The translations under genes were made by a program, and so were the position numbers. A stretch of DNA of 63,071 nucleotides, counting the filler. It is 4 parts of 4 records of this genome, joined end to end, with 100 filler letters (N's around TTAATTAATTAA, not from the genome) between each part and the next. Parts side by side here need not be neighbours in the genome. Positions count along the whole stretch, not along the records: positions 24,334 to 46,435 come from SRR20825006_993; 3 more parts are not named here. The stretch is one strand, 5' to 3'. Of the stretch, positions 3,159 to 57,646 are shown piece by piece (positions within the stretch are counted from its first letter, which is position 1; each line of letters opens with the position of its first letter). The notes beneath the pieces were generated by a model. It was not told where the DNA came from. It did no database searches and was given only the letters and a program-made list of their open reading frames with translations.

Positions 3159-3996
3159 CCTTCGTTATATCTGTTCTTAAGTTTTTTATCAATTCTTGTT
3201 TCCTCTTGTTAAGTATAATCTGCTCAACCGTTGGTTTTATATAAGATAGTGGTGCTTGTTCTCCACGTTCTTTAATATCCTTAATATATATTAAATAGAC
3301 GCCAAGAGAATCTTTAAGTTGCACATATCTATCTGCAGTGTTTAATTGCCATGGTTGCGCTTCTTTTAACACTGGCAAATCTTCTAAAAGTTGTCTGGAT
3401 TCTCTCCAAATTGAATCATTAAGGTTGTATTGAGGAAACTCCACAACACTATTCATTAAAGATTGTTTGTCTTCACTATTAAATCTTGCTATTTCTCGCT
3501 TTATTTGATTTATAGATGATGAACCATCTGGCAGCCTTACATATCTTAGTTTATATAATGTTTCATTTAGACTAAAAGCTGTACTGTTAGCCTCAAAATA
3601 TTCTTTAACTTGATTTTCTGTAATAACAGAATCTATTTTCTTTACCACCATTGCATCTGTATAAGCCTTGGTGTAAAGTTGATTCTTATAATCATCTACC
3701 AACTTATCAAATTTTTTCTGGCGCTCTAAATTCAAATTAAGTTTTGCTCTGTCTATTAAAAGCTGCTGAGTTGCCCAACGGTCTATATAATTATTTACAA
3801 TTACTGTGCTATCTTCTTTAGATGTTGTTGCGGTTGTTAGATTAGAAATGTCTTCTCTATACAAAAAGCTTTTGTTTACACGCGCCACGACTTCACGCTC
3901 ATCTTCAGGGCCAAAGTCAAAATTAAAATAATCACAACTTTGCAGTAAAAATACACCGCAAAAAATAGCTAGTATGTAATTTAATTTAGTCTTCAA
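3121..3996 (-). CDS. Foldase/PPIase-like lipoprotein (SurA/PrsA-like N-domain)
   Basis: Lipobox LQSC, VVARVN motif, ITENQVKEYFE helix, position between two PPIase genes; TTG start. Confidence 0.7.
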   Translation of the reverse strand: MKTKLNYILAIFCGVFLLQSCDYFNFDFGPEDEREVVARVNKSFLYREDISNLTTATTSKEDSTVIVNNYIDRWATQQLLIDRAKLNLNLERQKKFDKLVDDYKNQLYTKAYTDAMVVKKIDSVITENQVKEYFEANSTAFSLNETLYKLRYVRLPDGSSSINQIKREIARFNSEDKQSLMNSVVEFPQYNLNDSIWRESRQLLEDLPVLKEAQPWQLNTADRYVQLKDSLGVYLIYIKDIKERGEQAPLSYIKPTVEQIILNKRKQELIKNLRTDITKDAIKNNEFEIFN

Positions 3997-7416: not shown

Positions 7417-8607
7417 ATGAAACGTGTAGTAGTAGGACTTAGTGGTGGTGTAGACAGTAGTGTTTCTGCATATTTACTTAAAGAACAAGGTTATGAGGTT
7501 ATTGGCTTGTTTATGAAAAACTGGCATGATGATACTGTAACCATAAGTGATGAGTGCCCTTGGCTGGATGACAGTAATGATGCTATGCTTGTAGCCGAAA
7601 AATTAGGCATACCATTTCAAACTGTAGATTTAAGCGAAGAGTACAAAGAACGTATAGTTGACTATATGTTTAATGAATACAAAAACGGACGCACCCCAAA
7701 TCCAGATGTGCTTTGTAATCGTGAAATTAAGTTTGATGTTTTTATGAAGATTGCAATGTCTTTAGGAGCAGACTATGTAGCCACAGGACATTATTGCAGA
7801 AAAAGCAGTATAGAAAAGGATGGTGAAACCATTTACCAATTATTATCTGGAAAAGATAATAATAAAGACCAATCTTACTTTTTATGTCAACTTTCTCAAG
7901 AGCAATTATCTAAAACATTATTTCCAATTGGTGAGTTGCAAAAGAGTGAAGTAAGAAAAATTGCAGCTGAGCAAGATTTAGTTACCGCAGACAAAAAAGA
8001 CTCTCAAGGTCTTTGTTTTATAGGAAAAGTAAGGCTTCCAGATTTCTTGCAACAACAATTAAAACCTAAGGAAGGAGATATCGTAGAGATTGACACAACT
8101 TTAGACCAATACGCAAAAGACACTAAAGAAGACTTTAATACAACTGAAGAAGAGTTGGCTTACCTGTCTAAAAAGTTTACATATAATTTTGAAGATGGTA
8201 AAATAGTTGGCAAACACCAAGGTGCACATTATTTTACAAAAGGACAACGTAAAGGTTTAGGTGTAGGCGGCACTCCAGAACCATTGTTTGTAATTGATAC
8301 TGATGTAGAAGAAAACATTATATACACAGGCCAAGGAAAACAGCATCCAGGTTTATATAGGCGAGGCCTTTTTGTTAGCCCTCATGAAATACACTGGATT
8401 CGTGAAGATTTAAAACTTGATACAGGTGACACTATGAATGTTATGGCACGTATCAGATATCGTCAAACTTTAGAAAAAGCAACATTACACCAAACCGAAC
8501 ACGGCTTATATGTAATTTTCGACAACCCTCAATCTGCCATTGCAGAAGGACAATTTGTAGCTTGGTATCATGACGAAGAACTTATTGGTAGCGGTGTAAT
8601 ATCTTAA
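7417..8607 (+). CDS. mnmA: tRNA 2-thiouridine(34) synthase MnmA
   Basis: [47 protein letters not shown]; start placed at MKRVVVG (7417) rather than TTG 7378. Confidence 0.97.
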
Positions 8608-24233: not shown

Positions 24234-24333
24234 NNNNNNNNNNNNNNNNNNNNNNNNNNNNNNNNNNNNNNNNNNNNTTAATTAATTAANNNNNNNNNNN
24301 NNNNNNNNNNNNNNNNNNNNNNNNNNNNNNNNN
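24234..24333. other. Artificial contig spacer
   Basis: 44 N + TTAATTAATTAA (stops in all six frames) + 44 N. Confidence 0.98.
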
Positions 24334-24386
24334 TCGGCATCTTTTTTGTTATTAAGATATAGATTCATCAATTTAAATTAATCAAC

Positions 24387-29740: not shown

Positions 29741-29815
29741 AATAAAGAATTAGTTGAAATGTTAAAAATTTTAAGAATTGAAAGTTAGTCAATTAATTTA
29801 AAAATCAGAAAATAA

Positions 29816-29881
29816 ATTCATCACAAAATATTGCCTTTCGTCACATGTATATGATCTTGTATAGCTATATTAATATCTTTA
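29816..29881 (+). promoter_or_regulatory. Direct repeat plus -7-like element upstream of the sensor kinase (putative LytTR site)
   Basis: ATTCATCACA (29816-29825) and TTTCGTCACA (29836-29845), period 20 nt; TATCTTTA at 29874-29881. Confidence 0.5.
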
Positions 29882-29887
29882 TAAGGT

Positions 29888-31897
29888 TTGAAACATATGA
29901 AATTTAGCCCCATTTATATTATCTTATTACTATTCCTTTCGCAAATGTCTGCGCAAGAGAATGATAAGGAGTTAAACAATTTATTTAATGCTGTAACAAC
30001 TATTGAAGTTACACCAAACGCATTACAGAATTATTTTTATAAAATCACAGATAATTACTTGCTCACAGAACACAGAGAATCTTTTACAGGTTTTTTTAAT
30101 TATGTAGAATCAGATTTAAAATTAATGAACTCTACAGTGTTTAAGGATCACTACTATCTTTTTAAGGCAAGATCTTATAGGCTCTCTAATGAATTTGGTA
30201 AAACTTTTTCTAGTCTAAATAATATAAGTGATAAGTTATCAGGCTTTTCAAAAAAGGACAGTGTTAACTATTTTGTTATGTACCACCTTGCTACCACAGA
30301 GCTTGGCCTGTTTAAACAAAGTATTACCTATGCCCAGATTATTAACTCTATAGATGATATACCATCTACAAGGGAGCCAGGTATGGCACCAGATATATAT
30401 TTTTTAGTGTCAAGTGATTTATCTTACAACAAACTAGGTGACTATAAAAACGCTATTCGCATAGCAAAATCTAAGTTCGAAAAGTTTAAGGAGCTATATC
30501 CTAAAGATTATTACTTTCTATTTAATAGAGCTAATAATATAGGTGTTTACTATAATAATTATAACAAGCCAGATAGTGCATTAGTTTATTTTAATAAAGC
30601 AATGTCTTATTTGGATTATGAGGGTTTTAATGGTTCTAAGAGTACAGATAAATATAGATCCTTTATTCAAGGAAATGTAGCGCAGTCTTATATGTTAATG
30701 GAGCATTATAAAGAAGCAATCCCATTATTAGAGGACGATATAGAAAAATCTCTTGACTATTTTCCCTACAATGCTTTAATAAGCTCTGTATTGTTAGCAG
30801 AAAGTCATGTTAAACTTAATAATGTAGCAAAAGCCGAACGTGTATTGTCTAGGTTTGATAGTATTTCTAATGCTACAGAACGGTTACAAAACCCAGAGTT
30901 TAGAGACAAACTATTTGCCATCAAAGCAAAAATTGCAGAACAAAAAGGAAACCATGTAAAAGCCATTGAAATCTTAAACGCTCAAATAAAGTTTAGAGAT
31001 TCTTACAAAGCTGCAGAAAAAATTGAAGAAGCAATCTCTTTGCAATCTGCTTTTGAGCTAGAAAAAAAAGAAGCAGAGTTATTAGCCTCTAAAGTTAAAG
31101 CTAAGGAAATGGAAATTACTCTAAATAAGCGTAATTACAGTATTATTGGTGGTTTGTTATTAATTATAGCATTAGCAGGTTTGCTAATATGGTATCGCTT
31201 AAATAGTCTTAAGCAAAAAGCTCAAAATAAAGAATTTAAATTGCTAACTGAAACTATTGCAGAAAAGAATAAGGTAATTAATATAGCACTACAGGAAAAG
31301 GATACGCTTTTAAAGGAAATACACCATCGTGTAAAAAATAACTTGCAAGTGGTTTCAAGTCTTTTAAGTTTACAGAGTAACAATATTAGTAGTACCGTTG
31401 TAAGAGAGGCTTTACTAGATGGGCAAGCAAGAGTTAGATCTATGGCGTTGGTACACCAAAGGTTATATGAAACAGATAATTATAAGGATATTGTTTTTAA
31501 TGACTACATAGGCCAACTTGTGCAAAATTTAATAGCAACTTATAGAGTAGATAATAAAGTAGAATACACTATTAACTCTAAAGAAATAGTAGATATAGAT
31601 ATAGCTGTGCCTCTTGGTTTAATAATTAATGAGATAGTCACAAATACTTTAAAGTATAGTAAAAAAGATGTGCTAAGGTTGTCTATAAATTTTAACGAAA
31701 AGAACCCAAATCATTATAAATTAGTAATTTCAGATAATGCTTTAGGATTTAATCTTGAGGAAGTGAAAAAACGAAAGACCTTAGGTCTTAAATTAATAGA
31801 AATATTGGTGAAACAGTTAGAAGGAAATCTTGATATAGATACTTCAACTAAATCACCAACAACATATACAATTGAGTTTCCAAAAACTGACAAATGA
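29888..31897 (+). CDS. Sensor histidine kinase with periplasmic TPR-like region and HisKA_2 domain
   Basis: Signal peptide, TPR-like helices (NNIGVYY, GNVAQSY), TM helix, EIHHRVKNNLQ, PLGLIINEIVTN..KY, LGLKLI; ATG alternative at 29897. Confidence 0.92.
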   Translation: MKHMKFSPIYIILLLFLSQMSAQENDKELNNLFNAVTTIEVTPNALQNYFYKITDNYLLTEHRESFTGFFNYVESDLKLMNSTVFKDHYYLFKARSYRLSNEFGKTFSSLNNISDKLSGFSKKDSVNYFVMYHLATTELGLFKQSITYAQIINSIDDIPSTREPGMAPDIYFLVSSDLSYNKLGDYKNAIRIAKSKFEKFKELYPKDYYFLFNRANNIGVYYNNYNKPDSALVYFNKAMSYLDYEGFNGSKSTDKYRSFIQGNVAQSYMLMEHYKEAIPLLEDDIEKSLDYFPYNALISSVLLAESHVKLNNVAKAERVLSRFDSISNATERLQNPEFRDKLFAIKAKIAEQKGNHVKAIEILNAQIKFRDSYKAAEKIEEAISLQSAFELEKKEAELLASKVKAKEMEITLNKRNYSIIGGLLLIIALAGLLIWYRLNSLKQKAQNKEFKLLTETIAEKNKVINIALQEKDTLLKEIHHRVKNNLQVVSSLLSLQSNNISSTVVREALLDGQARVRSMALVHQRLYETDNYKDIVFNDYIGQLVQNLIATYRVDNKVEYTINSKEIVDIDIAVPLGLIINEIVTNTLKYSKKDVLRLSINFNEKNPNHYKLVISDNALGFNLEEVKKRKTLGLKLIEILVKQLEGNLDIDTSTKSPTTYTIEFPKTDK

Positions 31898-32616
31898 AAA
31901 AAAACATTCTCATAGTAGAAGATGAGCTTTTAATTGCTGAAGATATTAAGTACAATTTAGAGCGTTTAAATTATAACGTATCAGGTATTGCCATAAGAGC
32001 TTCAGAAGCACTTACAATACTTGAAAACAATAGTGTAGATTTAGCTTTGCTGGATATTAATATTAAAGGAGAATTAGATGGCATAGAGTTAGGAAGAAAG
32101 ATTAGATCTCTTTATCCAATGCCAATTGTGTACCTAACATCTAACTCAGACAAACGCACTGTGGAACGTGCTGTTGAAACAGAGCCATCTGGCTATGTGG
32201 TTAAACCTTATAACAAAACAGATCTTTTTACAACACTTACGTTAGCTCTTCATAACTCAGATAAAAACGAGAAGCCACAAGAAAAACAATCTACACAAGG
32301 TAAAGGTAAGTCTGTGTTTTTTAAAGTAGAAGGTACTTATACAAAAGTATTGTTTGATAATATATTATTTTTTAGAACCGCAGGAAATTACATTGAGATT
32401 CATAAAATTGGAGGAGTAGACTTGGTAAGGATGACAGTTAAGGAATTGTTTGAACATGTAGCTTCAGGAAATTTCTTGAGAGTACATAAATCCTATATTT
32501 TAAATAGGGATAAAATAACTGGATTTAATGGTAAAGAGGTTTTTATAGGAGATAGGAAGTTTCCTATGGGTGGCGTTTATAAAGATGAAGTCTTTCAAGT
32601 GTTAGATGTAAACTAA
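31894..32616 (+). CDS. LytTR-family response regulator
   Basis: ILIVEDE, LLDI, YLTS, VKP receiver motifs; FLRVHKSYILN LytTR motif; 4-nt overlap with the kinase. Confidence 0.95.
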   Translation: MKKNILIVEDELLIAEDIKYNLERLNYNVSGIAIRASEALTILENNSVDLALLDINIKGELDGIELGRKIRSLYPMPIVYLTSNSDKRTVERAVETEPSGYVVKPYNKTDLFTTLTLALHNSDKNEKPQEKQSTQGKGKSVFFKVEGTYTKVLFDNILFFRTAGNYIEIHKIGGVDLVRMTVKELFEHVASGNFLRVHKSYILNRDKITGFNGKEVFIGDRKFPMGGVYKDEVFQVLDVN

Positions 32617-32617
32617 A

Positions 32618-32684
32618 TTTTGTCACAAATAACTTAGGTTTTGTCACATCAGTCTACATGCAATTCAAGTAATTAATATATTTG
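32618..32684 (+). promoter_or_regulatory. Perfect 10-bp direct repeat (period 21) plus consensus -7 promoter element
   Basis: TTTTGTCACA at 32618-32627 and 32639-32648; TATATTTG at 32677-32684. Confidence 0.7.
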
Positions 32685-32687
32685 AGA

Positions 32688-32767
32688 TATCCATAGATAA
32701 TTGGGGTTTATATGGGTGTTTTATACTAAAAAAGGAGTGATTTGTTAATAATCACTCCTTTACTTTT
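32688..32767 (+). ncRNA. Candidate ~80-nt small RNA (hairpin with TTGGGG loop plus terminator)
   Basis: Promoter upstream, no plausible ORF, stem ATATCCATA/TATGGGTGT whose G-U pairs form only on the plus strand, then a terminator hairpin. Confidence 0.5.
32728..32767. terminator. Bidirectional intrinsic terminator (serA on minus; regulator/sRNA on plus)
   Basis: AAAGGAGTGATT-TGTTAAT-AATCACTCCTTT, 12-bp stem flanked by an A-run and a T-rich run. Confidence 0.85.
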
Positions 32768-32782
32768 AATATATCTTGTTAA

Positions 32783-33739
32783 TTATGCAGGTTGTAGTAT
32801 ATCTGCAATCTGCTCTGCTAACTCAACACCAATTCTGTCTTGCGCTTCTAGAGTAGCTGCGCCAATATGAGGACTTAATGAAAGTTTCTCATTCATTAAT
32901 AACTGTATCTCTGGCTTAGGCTCTTTTTCAAAAACATCTAAAGCTGCAAAAGATACTTTTCCATCATTTAGAGCATCAACCAATGCTACTTCATCTAATA
33001 CACCACCACGTGCAGCATTAATAATACCAACACCATCTTTCATTTTTGAAATTTCTTCTTTACCAATAACATAATCCTTTTGAGCAGGAACGTGTAAGGT
33101 TATAAAATCTGAATGCTGTATTAAATCTGAAACTGGTTCTGTTTTAATAGGAATCTTTATGGTTTGGTGATTGTAAAATTCTAATTCTATTTCTGCTTCA
33201 CCTACATAGTTATCACTTGCTACTACTTTCATACCAATACCTAAGGCAATCTTTGCTACCTCACGACCAATACGACCAAAACCAATAATACCTATGGTTT
33301 TACCTCTTAGTTCTCTTCCTTTAGCATAAGATTTTTTTAAAGCCTTAAAGTTTGTATCGCCTTCTAGTGGCATAGCTCTATTAGAGTCGTACAAGTATCT
33401 AACGCCACCATATAGGTGAGCAAATACGAGCTCTGCAACGCTACTGGATGATGCTGCAGGTGTATTAATAACGTGCAAGCCTTTTTCTTTTGCATAGCTA
33501 ACATCTATATTATCCATACCAACACCGCCACGACCTATTATTTTTAAGCTAGGGCACGCATCGATTAATTCTTTTCTTACAGTTGTGGCACTTCTTACCA
33601 ATAGTACAGAAATGTCATTTTTATTTATATAGTCTTTAAGTTGATCTTGAGCTACGTTAGTAGTTATAACTTCAAAACCAGCTTTTTCCATAGCGTCTAC
33701 ACCACTTTGAGAAACACCATCATTTGCTAAAATTTTCAT
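32783..33739 (-). CDS. serA: D-3-phosphoglycerate dehydrogenase (short form without ACT domain)
   Basis: [45 protein letters not shown]; adjacent to serC. Confidence 0.88.
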
Positions 33740-33777: not shown

Positions 33778-34845
33778 TTAAGCTTTACGTTCTAGATCAC
33801 TCATAACTTCAACCAAAGTACTAACACTATCTTTTGCCATTGCATTGTACATAGATGCCCTGTAGCCTCCAACACTTCTATGACCATTAAGACCATTAAT
33901 ACCAGCTTCAGCTAACATAGCATTAAAAGTTTCAGTTAGATCGCCATTTACTAAGCTAAAGGTTGCATTCATGGTACTGCGATCTTCCTTCTCTGCAAAG
34001 CCTTTAAATAAAGGGTTTATATCTATTTCAGAATAAATAAGCTTAGCTTTCTTTTCATTTTGTTCTTGTATTTTATCTATACCACCTAGATTTTTAAGCC
34101 ATCTTAACGTAAGCATAGAGACATACACAGGAAAAACAGCAGGTGTATTAAACATACTAGATTTACCAATATGTACTGTATAATCCATCATAGAAGGAAT
34201 TTCTCTGTTTACTTTTCCTAATATATCTTCTTTTACTATAACTAAAGTCGTTCCTGCAGGACCCATATTTTTTTGAGCACCAGCATAAATCAGGTCAAAT
34301 TTTGAAAAATCTAATTGACGTGAAAAAATATCTGAACTCATATCACAAACCAAAGGAACATCTACATCTGGAAAACTCTTCATTTGAGTACCAAAGATTG
34401 TGTTGTTACTCGTACAGTGAAAATAATCTACATCTTTAGGAACTGTATACCCTTTTGGTATGTAATTAAAGTTTTGGTCTTTAGAGGATGCTACTTCTAA
34501 AACTTCTCCAAATAACTTAGCCTCTTTAATAGCCTTGCTACTCCAAGTTCCTGTATTTAAATAAGCAGCTTTATTTTGTAATAGGTTATAGGCAGTCATT
34601 AAAAACTGTGTGCTAGCACCTCCTTGCAAAAACAATGCTTTGTAGCCTTTTCCTTCTAAACCCAATAATTCTAAAGCAAGGTTTCTTGCTTCTTCCATAA
34701 CATCAACAAAATCTTTGCTTCTGTGAGATATTTCTAAAATTGAAAGTCCACTATTATTAAAGTCTAATATAGCTTGTGAAGATTCTTGAAATACTTCTTG
34801 TGGAAGAATACAAGGTCCAGCACTAAAATTATGTTTCTTTTTCAT
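33778..34845 (-). CDS. serC: Phosphoserine aminotransferase
   Basis: HNFSAGP, EISHRS, FLQGGAS, CDMSSD, YAGAQKNMGPAG, GHRSVGGYRASMYNA. Confidence 0.97.
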   Translation of the reverse strand: MKKKHNFSAGPCILPQEVFQESSQAILDFNNSGLSILEISHRSKDFVDVMEEARNLALELLGLEGKGYKALFLQGGASTQFLMTAYNLLQNKAAYLNTGTWSSKAIKEAKLFGEVLEVASSKDQNFNYIPKGYTVPKDVDYFHCTSNNTIFGTQMKSFPDVDVPLVCDMSSDIFSRQLDFSKFDLIYAGAQKNMGPAGTTLVIVKEDILGKVNREIPSMMDYTVHIGKSSMFNTPAVFPVYVSMLTLRWLKNLGGIDKIQEQNEKKAKLIYSEIDINPLFKGFAEKEDRSTMNATFSLVNGDLTETFNAMLAEAGINGLNGHRSVGGYRASMYNAMAKDSVSTLVEVMSDLERKA

Positions 34846-46435: not shown

Positions 46436-46535
46436 NNNNNNNNNNNNNNNNNNNNNNNNNNNNNNNNNNNNNNNNNNNNTTAATTAATTAANNNNNNNNN
46501 NNNNNNNNNNNNNNNNNNNNNNNNNNNNNNNNNNN
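46436..46535. other. Artificial contig spacer
   Basis: 44 N + TTAATTAATTAA + 44 N; abrupt change in GC content and gene content across it. Confidence 0.98.
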
Positions 46536-57546: not shown

Positions 57547-57646
57547 NNNNNNNNNNNNNNNNNNNNNNNNNNNNNNNNNNNNNNNNNNNNTTAATTAATT
57601 AANNNNNNNNNNNNNNNNNNNNNNNNNNNNNNNNNNNNNNNNNNNN
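57547..57646. other. Artificial contig spacer
   Basis: 44 N + TTAATTAATTAA + 44 N. Confidence 0.98.

Follow-up and report, generated by a model that had tools for sequence, protein, structure and literature searches.

What does a LytTR-type response regulator control when the spacer directly behind its own gene looks like a promoter? The question is raised by a 63,071-nucleotide (nt) stretch of DNA, here called the window, in which four parts of one marine flavobacterial genome are joined end to end and positions 24,334 to 46,435 come from SRR20825006_993. In this part, a sensor histidine kinase gene is followed by the gene for a LytTR response regulator, and a first-pass annotation had proposed that the spacer behind the regulator gene holds a LytTR-type promoter driving a small RNA. 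We conclude that a regulator-type promoter at this position is very probably real, with binding of the regulator predicted from sequence comparison. That a terminated RNA of about 79 nt is made from it is predicted with somewhat lower confidence but still appears likely, and a regulatory role for that RNA is a tentative proposal to which we give slightly less than an even chance.

Two elements define the candidate promoter. The first is a pair of identical boxes, TTTTGTCACA, at 32618-32627 and 32639-32648 on the plus strand, with a period of 21 nt and beginning 1 nt past the regulator stop. Their 9-mer cores, TTTGTCACA at 32619-32627 and 32640-32648, are N12 apart and have no mismatches. The second is a consensus Bacteroidota sigma-A −7 box of the form TAnnTTTG, TATATTTG, at 32677-32684 on the same strand, exactly 28 nt past box 2. 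The layout is thus TTTGTCACA, N12, TTTGTCACA, N28, TATATTTG, and no −33 TTG element is visible upstream of TATATTTG. Both the perfect repeat immediately behind the LytTR gene and the consensus −7 box had been described in the first-pass annotation, and both are present as claimed. According to a study in Flavobacterium psychrophilum, the −7 box occupies −12 to −5 (PMC9723704); for this reason we place the predicted transcription start near 32689, with the boxes at about −70 to −62 and −49 to −41.

Taken alone, the direct repeat is at chance level. Outside its three pairs of short N runs (masked stretches at about 24234-24333, 46436-46535, and 57547-57646), the window contains five exact repeats of at least 10 nt with a period of 11 to 40; among these five, one besides the promoter repeat also has a period of 21, and TTTGTCACA is reached twice or more in 21 of 100 shuffles. 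The position of the −7 box adds a second kind of evidence. Since TAnnTTTG has a background frequency in the window of only 4.7e-4 per position, the exact 28-nt offset is a strong independent test. We also searched the nearest (sister) genome, G001, the sole genome of its genus, where this is the only perfect TTTGTCACA box pair.

The spacing was then compared with that at related loci. A first set comprised 29 loci from other genera around the best homologues of the regulator (34-39% identity). Box pairs of the type TTCACAACA-N12-TWCACAACA were found 48 times in 24 of the 29 loci, with one to four per locus; all were downstream of the regulator gene on its strand, and the opposite strand had none. 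A strict TAnnTTTG lies at an offset of exactly 28 nt from 22 of the 48 box pairs. With the relaxed form TAnnTT[TA][GA] the count rises to 35 of 48, compared to at most 2 at any other offset. A second set of 29 loci, centered on the kinase and scanned without an assumed motif, yielded the same box type in 23 loci, 12 of which belong to genomes outside the first set (by comparison of the locus lists). The window promoter has the geometry of those 35 box pairs beside related LytTR genes, and a second related site stands upstream of the cognate kinase gene; both bear out the earlier designation as a LytTR-type promoter. The combination of the repeat and the −7 box, at a spacing fixed independently in related loci, lies far beyond chance.

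A recurrent arrangement was seen in many Flavobacteriaceae genera, in loci L027 to L054 and L123 to L150 (e.g., L035:2553-2701 and L033:2284-2733). The LytTR regulator gene, often located behind a UbiA-family gene, is followed by one to four tandem TTCACAACA-type promoters, the last of which precedes the TPR kinase gene. A generic test for repeat enrichment (a 9-mer repeated at 8/9 or better with a period of 20 to 22, up to 150 nt past the regulator stop) was rejected. It gave 13 of 48 loci downstream versus 22 of 48 in the control, which was a stretch inside the regulator gene, and only tests combining motif and geometry were used. Perfect 9-mer repeats with this period occur in 10 of 48 cases inside the regulator gene versus 3 of 48 downstream; the intragenic ones lie about 200 to 350 nt into the gene in L030, L031, L033, L036, L042, L044, L052, L053, L072, and L075.

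What do these promoters drive? In the relatives, 24 of 36 lead into units of 72 to 111 nt closed by a GC hairpin and a T-run, with no conserved open reading frame (ORF) on either strand. At least 6 of the remaining 12 are followed by an ORF that begins like a signal peptide and corresponds to the TPR kinase gene; in the first set this gene sits downstream of the regulator gene. The recurrence anticipated in the first-pass annotation, of a LytTR promoter leading to an ORF-less, terminated unit of about 80 nt, is thus seen beside related regulators. No Rfam family was matched in a search of 16 related loci. The relatives' RNAs have in common a core, CCCAAAUCUUAUCAUUUUCAUAUAGUGUUC, that is not present in the window RNA. 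The complement of this core resembles a start region (AUGAAAAUGAUAAGAUUUGGG), and a search of five genomes for long antisense targets of the core returned only the RNA genes themselves.

We asked where else in the window the same geometry occurs by scanning both strands for any 9-mer repeated at 8/9 or better with a period of 20 to 22, placed 27 to 29 nt before a −7-like box. This motif-agnostic scan found three sites, two of which flank the kinase-regulator operon and have a TCACA core in common. The upstream one, a candidate kinase promoter at 29817-29881 on the plus strand, consists of TTCATCACA (29817-29825), N11, TTCGTCACA (29837-29845), N28, and TATCTTTA (29874-29881). Its predicted start, about 29886, is 11 nt ahead of the ATG at 29897. 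Outside coding sequence, the 63-kilobase (kb) window has no site of this geometry besides this one and the one behind the regulator gene. The window and G001 do not differ anywhere inside the candidate kinase promoter, and a box pair at this position suggests autoregulation. The remaining site, at 8126-8190, is a repeat AAGAAGACT/AAGAAGAGT followed by N28 and a −7-like box within an ORF of 409 amino acids (aa), and it is probably a chance occurrence.

In G001, the pattern TYRTCACA-N12/13-TYRTCACA has three matches versus none for the reversed control; the pattern was composed after the sites were known, so this count is not independent. The third match, TTGTCACA-N13-TCGTCACA, lies about 92 nt upstream of the ATG of a gene for a 293-aa secreted protein and is possibly a regulator target, at present a candidate only. 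The N-terminal domain of this protein is 46% identical (E 2e-20) to the product of a gene that follows homologous kinase-regulator pairs in Flavobacterium, and the regulator gene of locus L127 likewise has such a secreted-protein gene behind it. G001 has seven matches to the 293-aa protein. Five of the seven, with the gene behind the box pair among them, cluster on its contig 1 at about 148.8-157.3 kb (L112/L020), and their N-terminal domain reads “QVGINT...LDI...KGILIPR.” The first-pass annotation had taken the small RNA to be the output of the kinase-regulator pair. That statement has to be given up, since the box pattern occurs at three G001 sites, namely, the kinase promoter, the RNA site, and the secreted-protein gene.

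No promoter of this geometry was found within 1.5 kb of the other six LytTR genes of G001. Relaxed box-pair searches of G001 (up to 3 mismatches) were discarded; the window box gave 6 matches versus 7 for its reversed control, and the relatives' box gave 17 versus 29. An architectural twin of the window locus was found in L135 (minus strand, about 393-700 and 3560-3660), where the kinase gene likewise precedes the regulator gene. Here, TTATCCC-type box pairs stand at N28 before the kinase gene, which is near-leaderless, and 11 nt past the regulator stop. The latter leads into a 240-nt unit that closes with a strong terminator and whose transcribed strand has no ATG frame reaching 20 codons.

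The transcript predicted behind the window regulator gene would extend from 32689 to 32767 on the plus strand, about 79 nt; the −7 box sets the predicted start, and the T-run past the terminator sets the predicted end. This length falls within the 72-to-111-nt range of the 24 analogous units in relatives. The terminator is a 12-pair stem at 32731-32761, called as an intrinsic terminator on both strands, with tails of ACUUUUAAU on the plus strand (an interrupted U-tract) and UUUUUUAG on the minus strand (a perfect U-tract). It is common to the kinase-regulator operon, the candidate RNA, and the convergent dehydrogenase gene. No ORF of at least 30 aa was found on the plus strand between 32617 and 32741, and the longest frames noted by eye ran to 15 codons (TTG start at 32701) and 5 codons (ATG start at 32713). 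The absence of such an ORF and the 12-pair terminator agree with the earlier description of about 80 nt lacking a plausible ORF before a strong terminator.

In the minimum-energy fold of 32685-32770, positions 32686-32695 pair with 32711-32720 around a 15-nt loop, GAUAAUUGGGGUUUA (32696-32710), which holds AAUUGGGG and is the proposed pairing region. From the predicted start, the 5′ arm of this stem would begin at 32689. The minus strand forms only five pairs at the same position. The earlier account of the fold thus stands as far as the predicted stem, loop, and strand difference are concerned; it fails in that the 5′ hairpin is no better than shuffled sequence, as set out below. The stretch as a whole folds at −24.7 kcal/mol, with a z of −4.2 that is due to the terminator. 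Rfam gave seven matches in the window region, all far below threshold, the best being Plastid-psbA-1 (22.2 versus 54.3 bits; E of 1.6). With every score under its gathering threshold, the earlier statement that no described RNA family is recognizable here holds.

The genes of the locus are as follows. The kinase gene (29888-31897, plus strand) encodes TPR, HisKA_2, and HATPase_c domains; its likely true start is the ATG at 29897, from which the N terminus is signal-peptide-like. Its 3′ end overlaps the 5′ end of the regulator gene (31894-32616, plus strand; TAA stop at 32614-32616), whose 240-aa product has receiver and LytTR domains (Response_reg, 72.6 bits; LytTR, 46.3 bits). On the minus strand are the convergent D-2-hydroxyacid dehydrogenase gene (32783-33739), which lies outside the predicted unit with 22 nt between its stop (32783) and the terminator hairpin, and, next after it, a class-V aminotransferase gene (33778-34845). 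Of 14 relatives' loci, 6 have the aminotransferase, dehydrogenase, and DUF937 genes grouped on one strand, and at the dehydrogenase-DUF937 site a kinase or regulator gene is absent from all 14. In the window, the dehydrogenase gene and DUF937 are separated by the kinase-regulator cassette (29741-32782), which is oriented the opposite way. Because none of the 14 loci has these genes there, the cassette looks like a lineage-specific insertion.

Compared with G001, the window shows no difference at all over 31760-32887, which comprises the regulator gene, the spacer, and the 3′ end of the dehydrogenase gene. Within the kinase gene, 87 of 2001 positions differ (4.35%), and the figure for DUF937 is 4.4%. 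Differences in the kinase gene are densest at 31000-31375, beside this invariant 1.1 kb. Read from the alignment, the mosaic of kinase and regulator divergence is suggestive of recombination or of diversification of the sensor part.

Could the RNA have targets? A search of G001 with 32675-32740 returned ten short matches besides the locus itself, two of them antisense to start regions. Positions 32697-32709 (13 nt, nearly the exact hairpin loop) are perfectly complementary to −12 to +2 of a gene for a 150-aa Lipocalin_4 lipoprotein, whose own −7 box predicts a 13-nt leader. Positions 32689-32702 (14 nt) are perfectly complementary to −8 to +6 of clpP. We regard the lipocalin-like lipoprotein gene and clpP as leads to candidate targets. 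A ranking of 55 start regions in the window by duplex energy placed the kinase 3rd and the regulator 53rd; the energies came from loop-rich duplexes, and the ranking was set aside as uninformative.

From these data we propose the following mechanism. The phosphorylated regulator, probably as a dimer, would bind the two TTTGTCACA boxes 21 nt apart and recruit or help sigma-A RNA polymerase at the TATATTTG −7 box. Transcription would start near 32689 and stop at the common bidirectional terminator, giving the ORF-less RNA of about 79 nt. The regulator would most likely activate its own kinase-regulator operon as well, via the weaker box pair at 29817-29845, and its targets may include the secreted-protein gene that lies elsewhere in the genome. 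Such a circuit would resemble agr in combining an autoregulated operon promoter with a small-RNA promoter. The 5′ end and G-rich loop of the RNA would most likely base-pair with translation initiation regions, those of the lipocalin-like lipoprotein messenger RNA (mRNA) and clpP being the candidates. We think the odds are modestly in favor of a LytTR-dependent promoter working in this way, with the binding, start, RNA, and targets all deduced from the sequence.

Several results weigh against this proposal. The half-site TTTGTCACA differs from the relatives' TTCACAACA at 4 of 9 positions, and the third G001 site has no −7 box at N28. The 5′ hairpin at 32685-32728 has a folding free energy of −8.9 (z of −1.59), with 16 of 200 shuffles folding as well, and from the predicted start at 32689 the value is −5.2 (z of +0.21), with 111 of 200 shuffles folding as well. 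A covariance model, R1, built from 19 of the relatives' RNAs (conserved single-stranded core plus terminator), gave nine weak matches across the whole window at E up to 10 and none at 32689-32767. The first-pass annotation had also suggested a genome-wide search for paralogues, and no second copy of the RNA was found in G001. The target matches were assessed post hoc: when the RNA was shuffled and compared with 108 start regions, the expectation came to 0.26 such hits per 2800 genes, and the probability of two or more is about 0.03.

No regulator orthologue of more than 41% identity was found in 201 family genomes, GTDB contigs, or metagenome contigs; the best homologue is 39-41% identical, and the metagenome contigs contain the same sequence only, with no orthologous locus. 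G001 and four metatranscriptome contig sets carry the boxes, −7 box, and RNA body unchanged; among these contig sets, the intergenic region varies at a single position, 32654 C>T, which lies past box 2 and ahead of the −7 box. This invariance among strains is not significant (1 variant in 166 nt versus about 3 expected; P of about 0.17). G001 is identical to the window across the spacer and, likewise, the whole regulator gene, and the zero differences therefore indicate recent shared ancestry of the segment rather than selection on the RNA. The metatranscriptome contigs span the regulator gene, spacer, and dehydrogenase gene unbroken and so cannot reveal a start or an end.

The terminator raises a further difficulty. 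Its minus-strand U-tract is perfect, and most of the relatives' dehydrogenase genes that we read have their own hairpin and T-run soon past the stop (by eye), so the terminator at 32731-32761 is probably the dehydrogenase gene's ancestral own. On this view, about 42 nt of the RNA would stem from the cassette and the rest would be a borrowed terminator. A truncated transcription unit would look the same, and the short unit may be an accident of cassette insertion. These points lead to the rival that survives best, namely, that the promoter is real and the transcript is a relic or by-product without function, the regulated protein gene having been lost or left behind when the cassette came to lie at the dehydrogenase terminator. 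A secreted-protein gene stands directly behind the regulator gene, together with period-21 repeats, in seven Flavobacterium-type loci and in L127, and the insertion of the cassette at a site where dehydrogenase and DUF937 are adjacent in 6 of the 14 relatives' loci fits such a history. So does the 5-codon ATG frame at 32713, 24 nt past the predicted start, which could be a truncated gene start, as does an RNA body lacking significant structure. Decay, however, would not be expected to leave perfect identical boxes, a consensus −7 box, and exact spacing, which together make this the genome's best match to the pattern. Furthermore, the larger group of relatives has such promoters driving short noncoding units, and the supposedly missing member of the secreted-protein family is present elsewhere in the genome with a box pair of its own. 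We therefore consider a functionless transcript unlikely.

The same terminator could be leaky. In that case the promoter would send regulated antisense transcription into the dehydrogenase/aminotransferase (serine-pathway-like) operon, lowering its expression by interference or by antisense RNA. The genes are convergent, only 22 nt lie between the dehydrogenase stop and the hairpin, and the U-tract is broken on the plus strand (ACUUUUAAU) and perfect on the minus strand. However, the 12-pair stem, within a stretch folding at −24.7 kcal/mol, is called a terminator on the plus strand too. It is the sole terminator available to the kinase-regulator operon, and the analogous units of relatives end at strong terminators. 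We consider antisense control of this operon quite improbable.

Still less probable is that the spacer is just the 3′ untranslated end of the regulator mRNA with a shared terminator, the repeat and TATATTTG having no function. Short-range exact repeats of 10 nt are found five times in the window, TTTGTCACA recurs in a fifth of shuffles (21/100), and sigma-70-type and −7-like motifs are frequent in AT-rich DNA, so each part could arise by accident. What such accidents do not supply is the exact N28 geometry of 35 of the 48 relatives' promoters, an only other intergenic site in 63 kb that precedes the cognate kinase gene with the same core, or a box pattern with 3 genomic matches against 0 in the control. 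Finally, Gram-positive LytTR systems often control small peptides, but a micropeptide read from the 15-codon TTG frame at 32701 or the 5-codon ATG frame at 32713 is hardly credible here, given that no ATG frame exceeds 5 codons, that the longer frame begins with TTG and ends within the terminator loop, and that neither strand of the relatives' units shows a conserved frame.

A LytTR-dependent promoter producing a short RNA thus remains our preferred reading, and its value extends past this locus. TPR-kinase LytTR two-component systems are very common in marine Flavobacteriaceae, and our literature search found no paper giving them a binding site or an output. In full-text searches on Flavobacteria and Bacteroidota, nothing was found on LytTR binding sites or LytTR-controlled RNAs, nor were the relatives' short RNAs with TTCACAACA promoters found in print. 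The locus and its relatives yield a promoter grammar of two 9-mers 21 nt apart, 28 nt ahead of a −7 box, together with a small predicted regulon that comprises three sites in a single genome. This grammar, and the regulator-RNA architecture that recurs across the family, give the finding its wider value. The prediction that follows is that short noncoding RNAs are a regular output of TPR-kinase/LytTR systems. To our knowledge, Bacteroidota are without Hfq and without Shine-Dalgarno-based initiation. If confirmed, these data would place regulator-controlled small RNAs in Bacteroidota and open the function of an abundant sensor family to experiment.

A more speculative generalization, which we hold to be doubtful as it stands, is that the TPR-kinase/LytTR systems of Flavobacteriaceae form a class of agr-like circuits whose main outputs are short noncoding RNAs. 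The window would then represent a version with kinase-operon, small-RNA, and secreted-protein promoters, in which the G-rich loop would cover the whole 13-nt lipocalin leader and AUG and the 5′ end would cover the clpP start. If true, this would link an unknown surface signal to control of the envelope and of proteolysis, in a phylum for which no regulator-RNA pair of this kind is known to have been described.

How does the proposed circuit compare with known systems? The AgrA protein of Staphylococcus aureus, also a LytTR regulator, is described in PMC4227749 as acting at direct-repeat pairs upstream of the promoter of its own operon, P2, and of the RNAIII promoter, P3, and as having a few direct protein-gene targets, the psm genes. 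The window resembles agr in that box pairs stand ahead of the kinase gene and of the predicted short RNA, with a candidate third ahead of a secreted-protein gene in G001. The differences are considerable. The window belongs to a different phylum whose polymerase uses a −7 box; its boxes lie at −70 to −62 and −49 to −41, whereas the proximal agr repeat is centered near −60; and its promoters flank the operon, whereas the agr promoters are divergent neighbors. Its sensor is a kinase of the TPR/HisKA_2 type, and genes for a peptide signal were not seen. Its RNA, predicted from sequence, is about 79 nt, noncoding, and unrelated in sequence to RNAIII.

Clostridium perfringens VirR/VirS offers a second comparison. 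Its LytTR-family regulator has direct-repeat boxes before a few genes, including those of regulatory RNAs (VR-RNA), but unlike the system in the window it works with a Firmicute sigma-70 promoter, other boxes, and other RNAs. Nearest to the window are the relatives' TTCACAACA units, which have the same order of 9-mer, N12, 9-mer, N28, and −7 box. They also stand beside LytTR regulator and TPR kinase genes and match in size, lack of an ORF, and strong terminator. They differ in the half-site (TTCACAACA there, TTTGTCACA here) and in gene order, which is regulator, RNA(s), and kinase in the relatives and kinase, regulator, and RNA here; the window RNA also has no CCCAAAUCUUAUCAUUUUCAUAUAGUGUUC core and no match to model R1. 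The last comparison is with 3′-end small RNAs of the DapZ/MicL type, which are enterobacterial and Hfq dependent and have an internal promoter of their own and a shared terminator. As in those cases, the candidate promoter stands just behind the operon stop with no terminator between, so that the RNA would have both its 3′ end and its sequence in common with the 3′ end of the operon mRNA. Unlike in those cases, the promoter here would be controlled by the product of the very operon that it follows.

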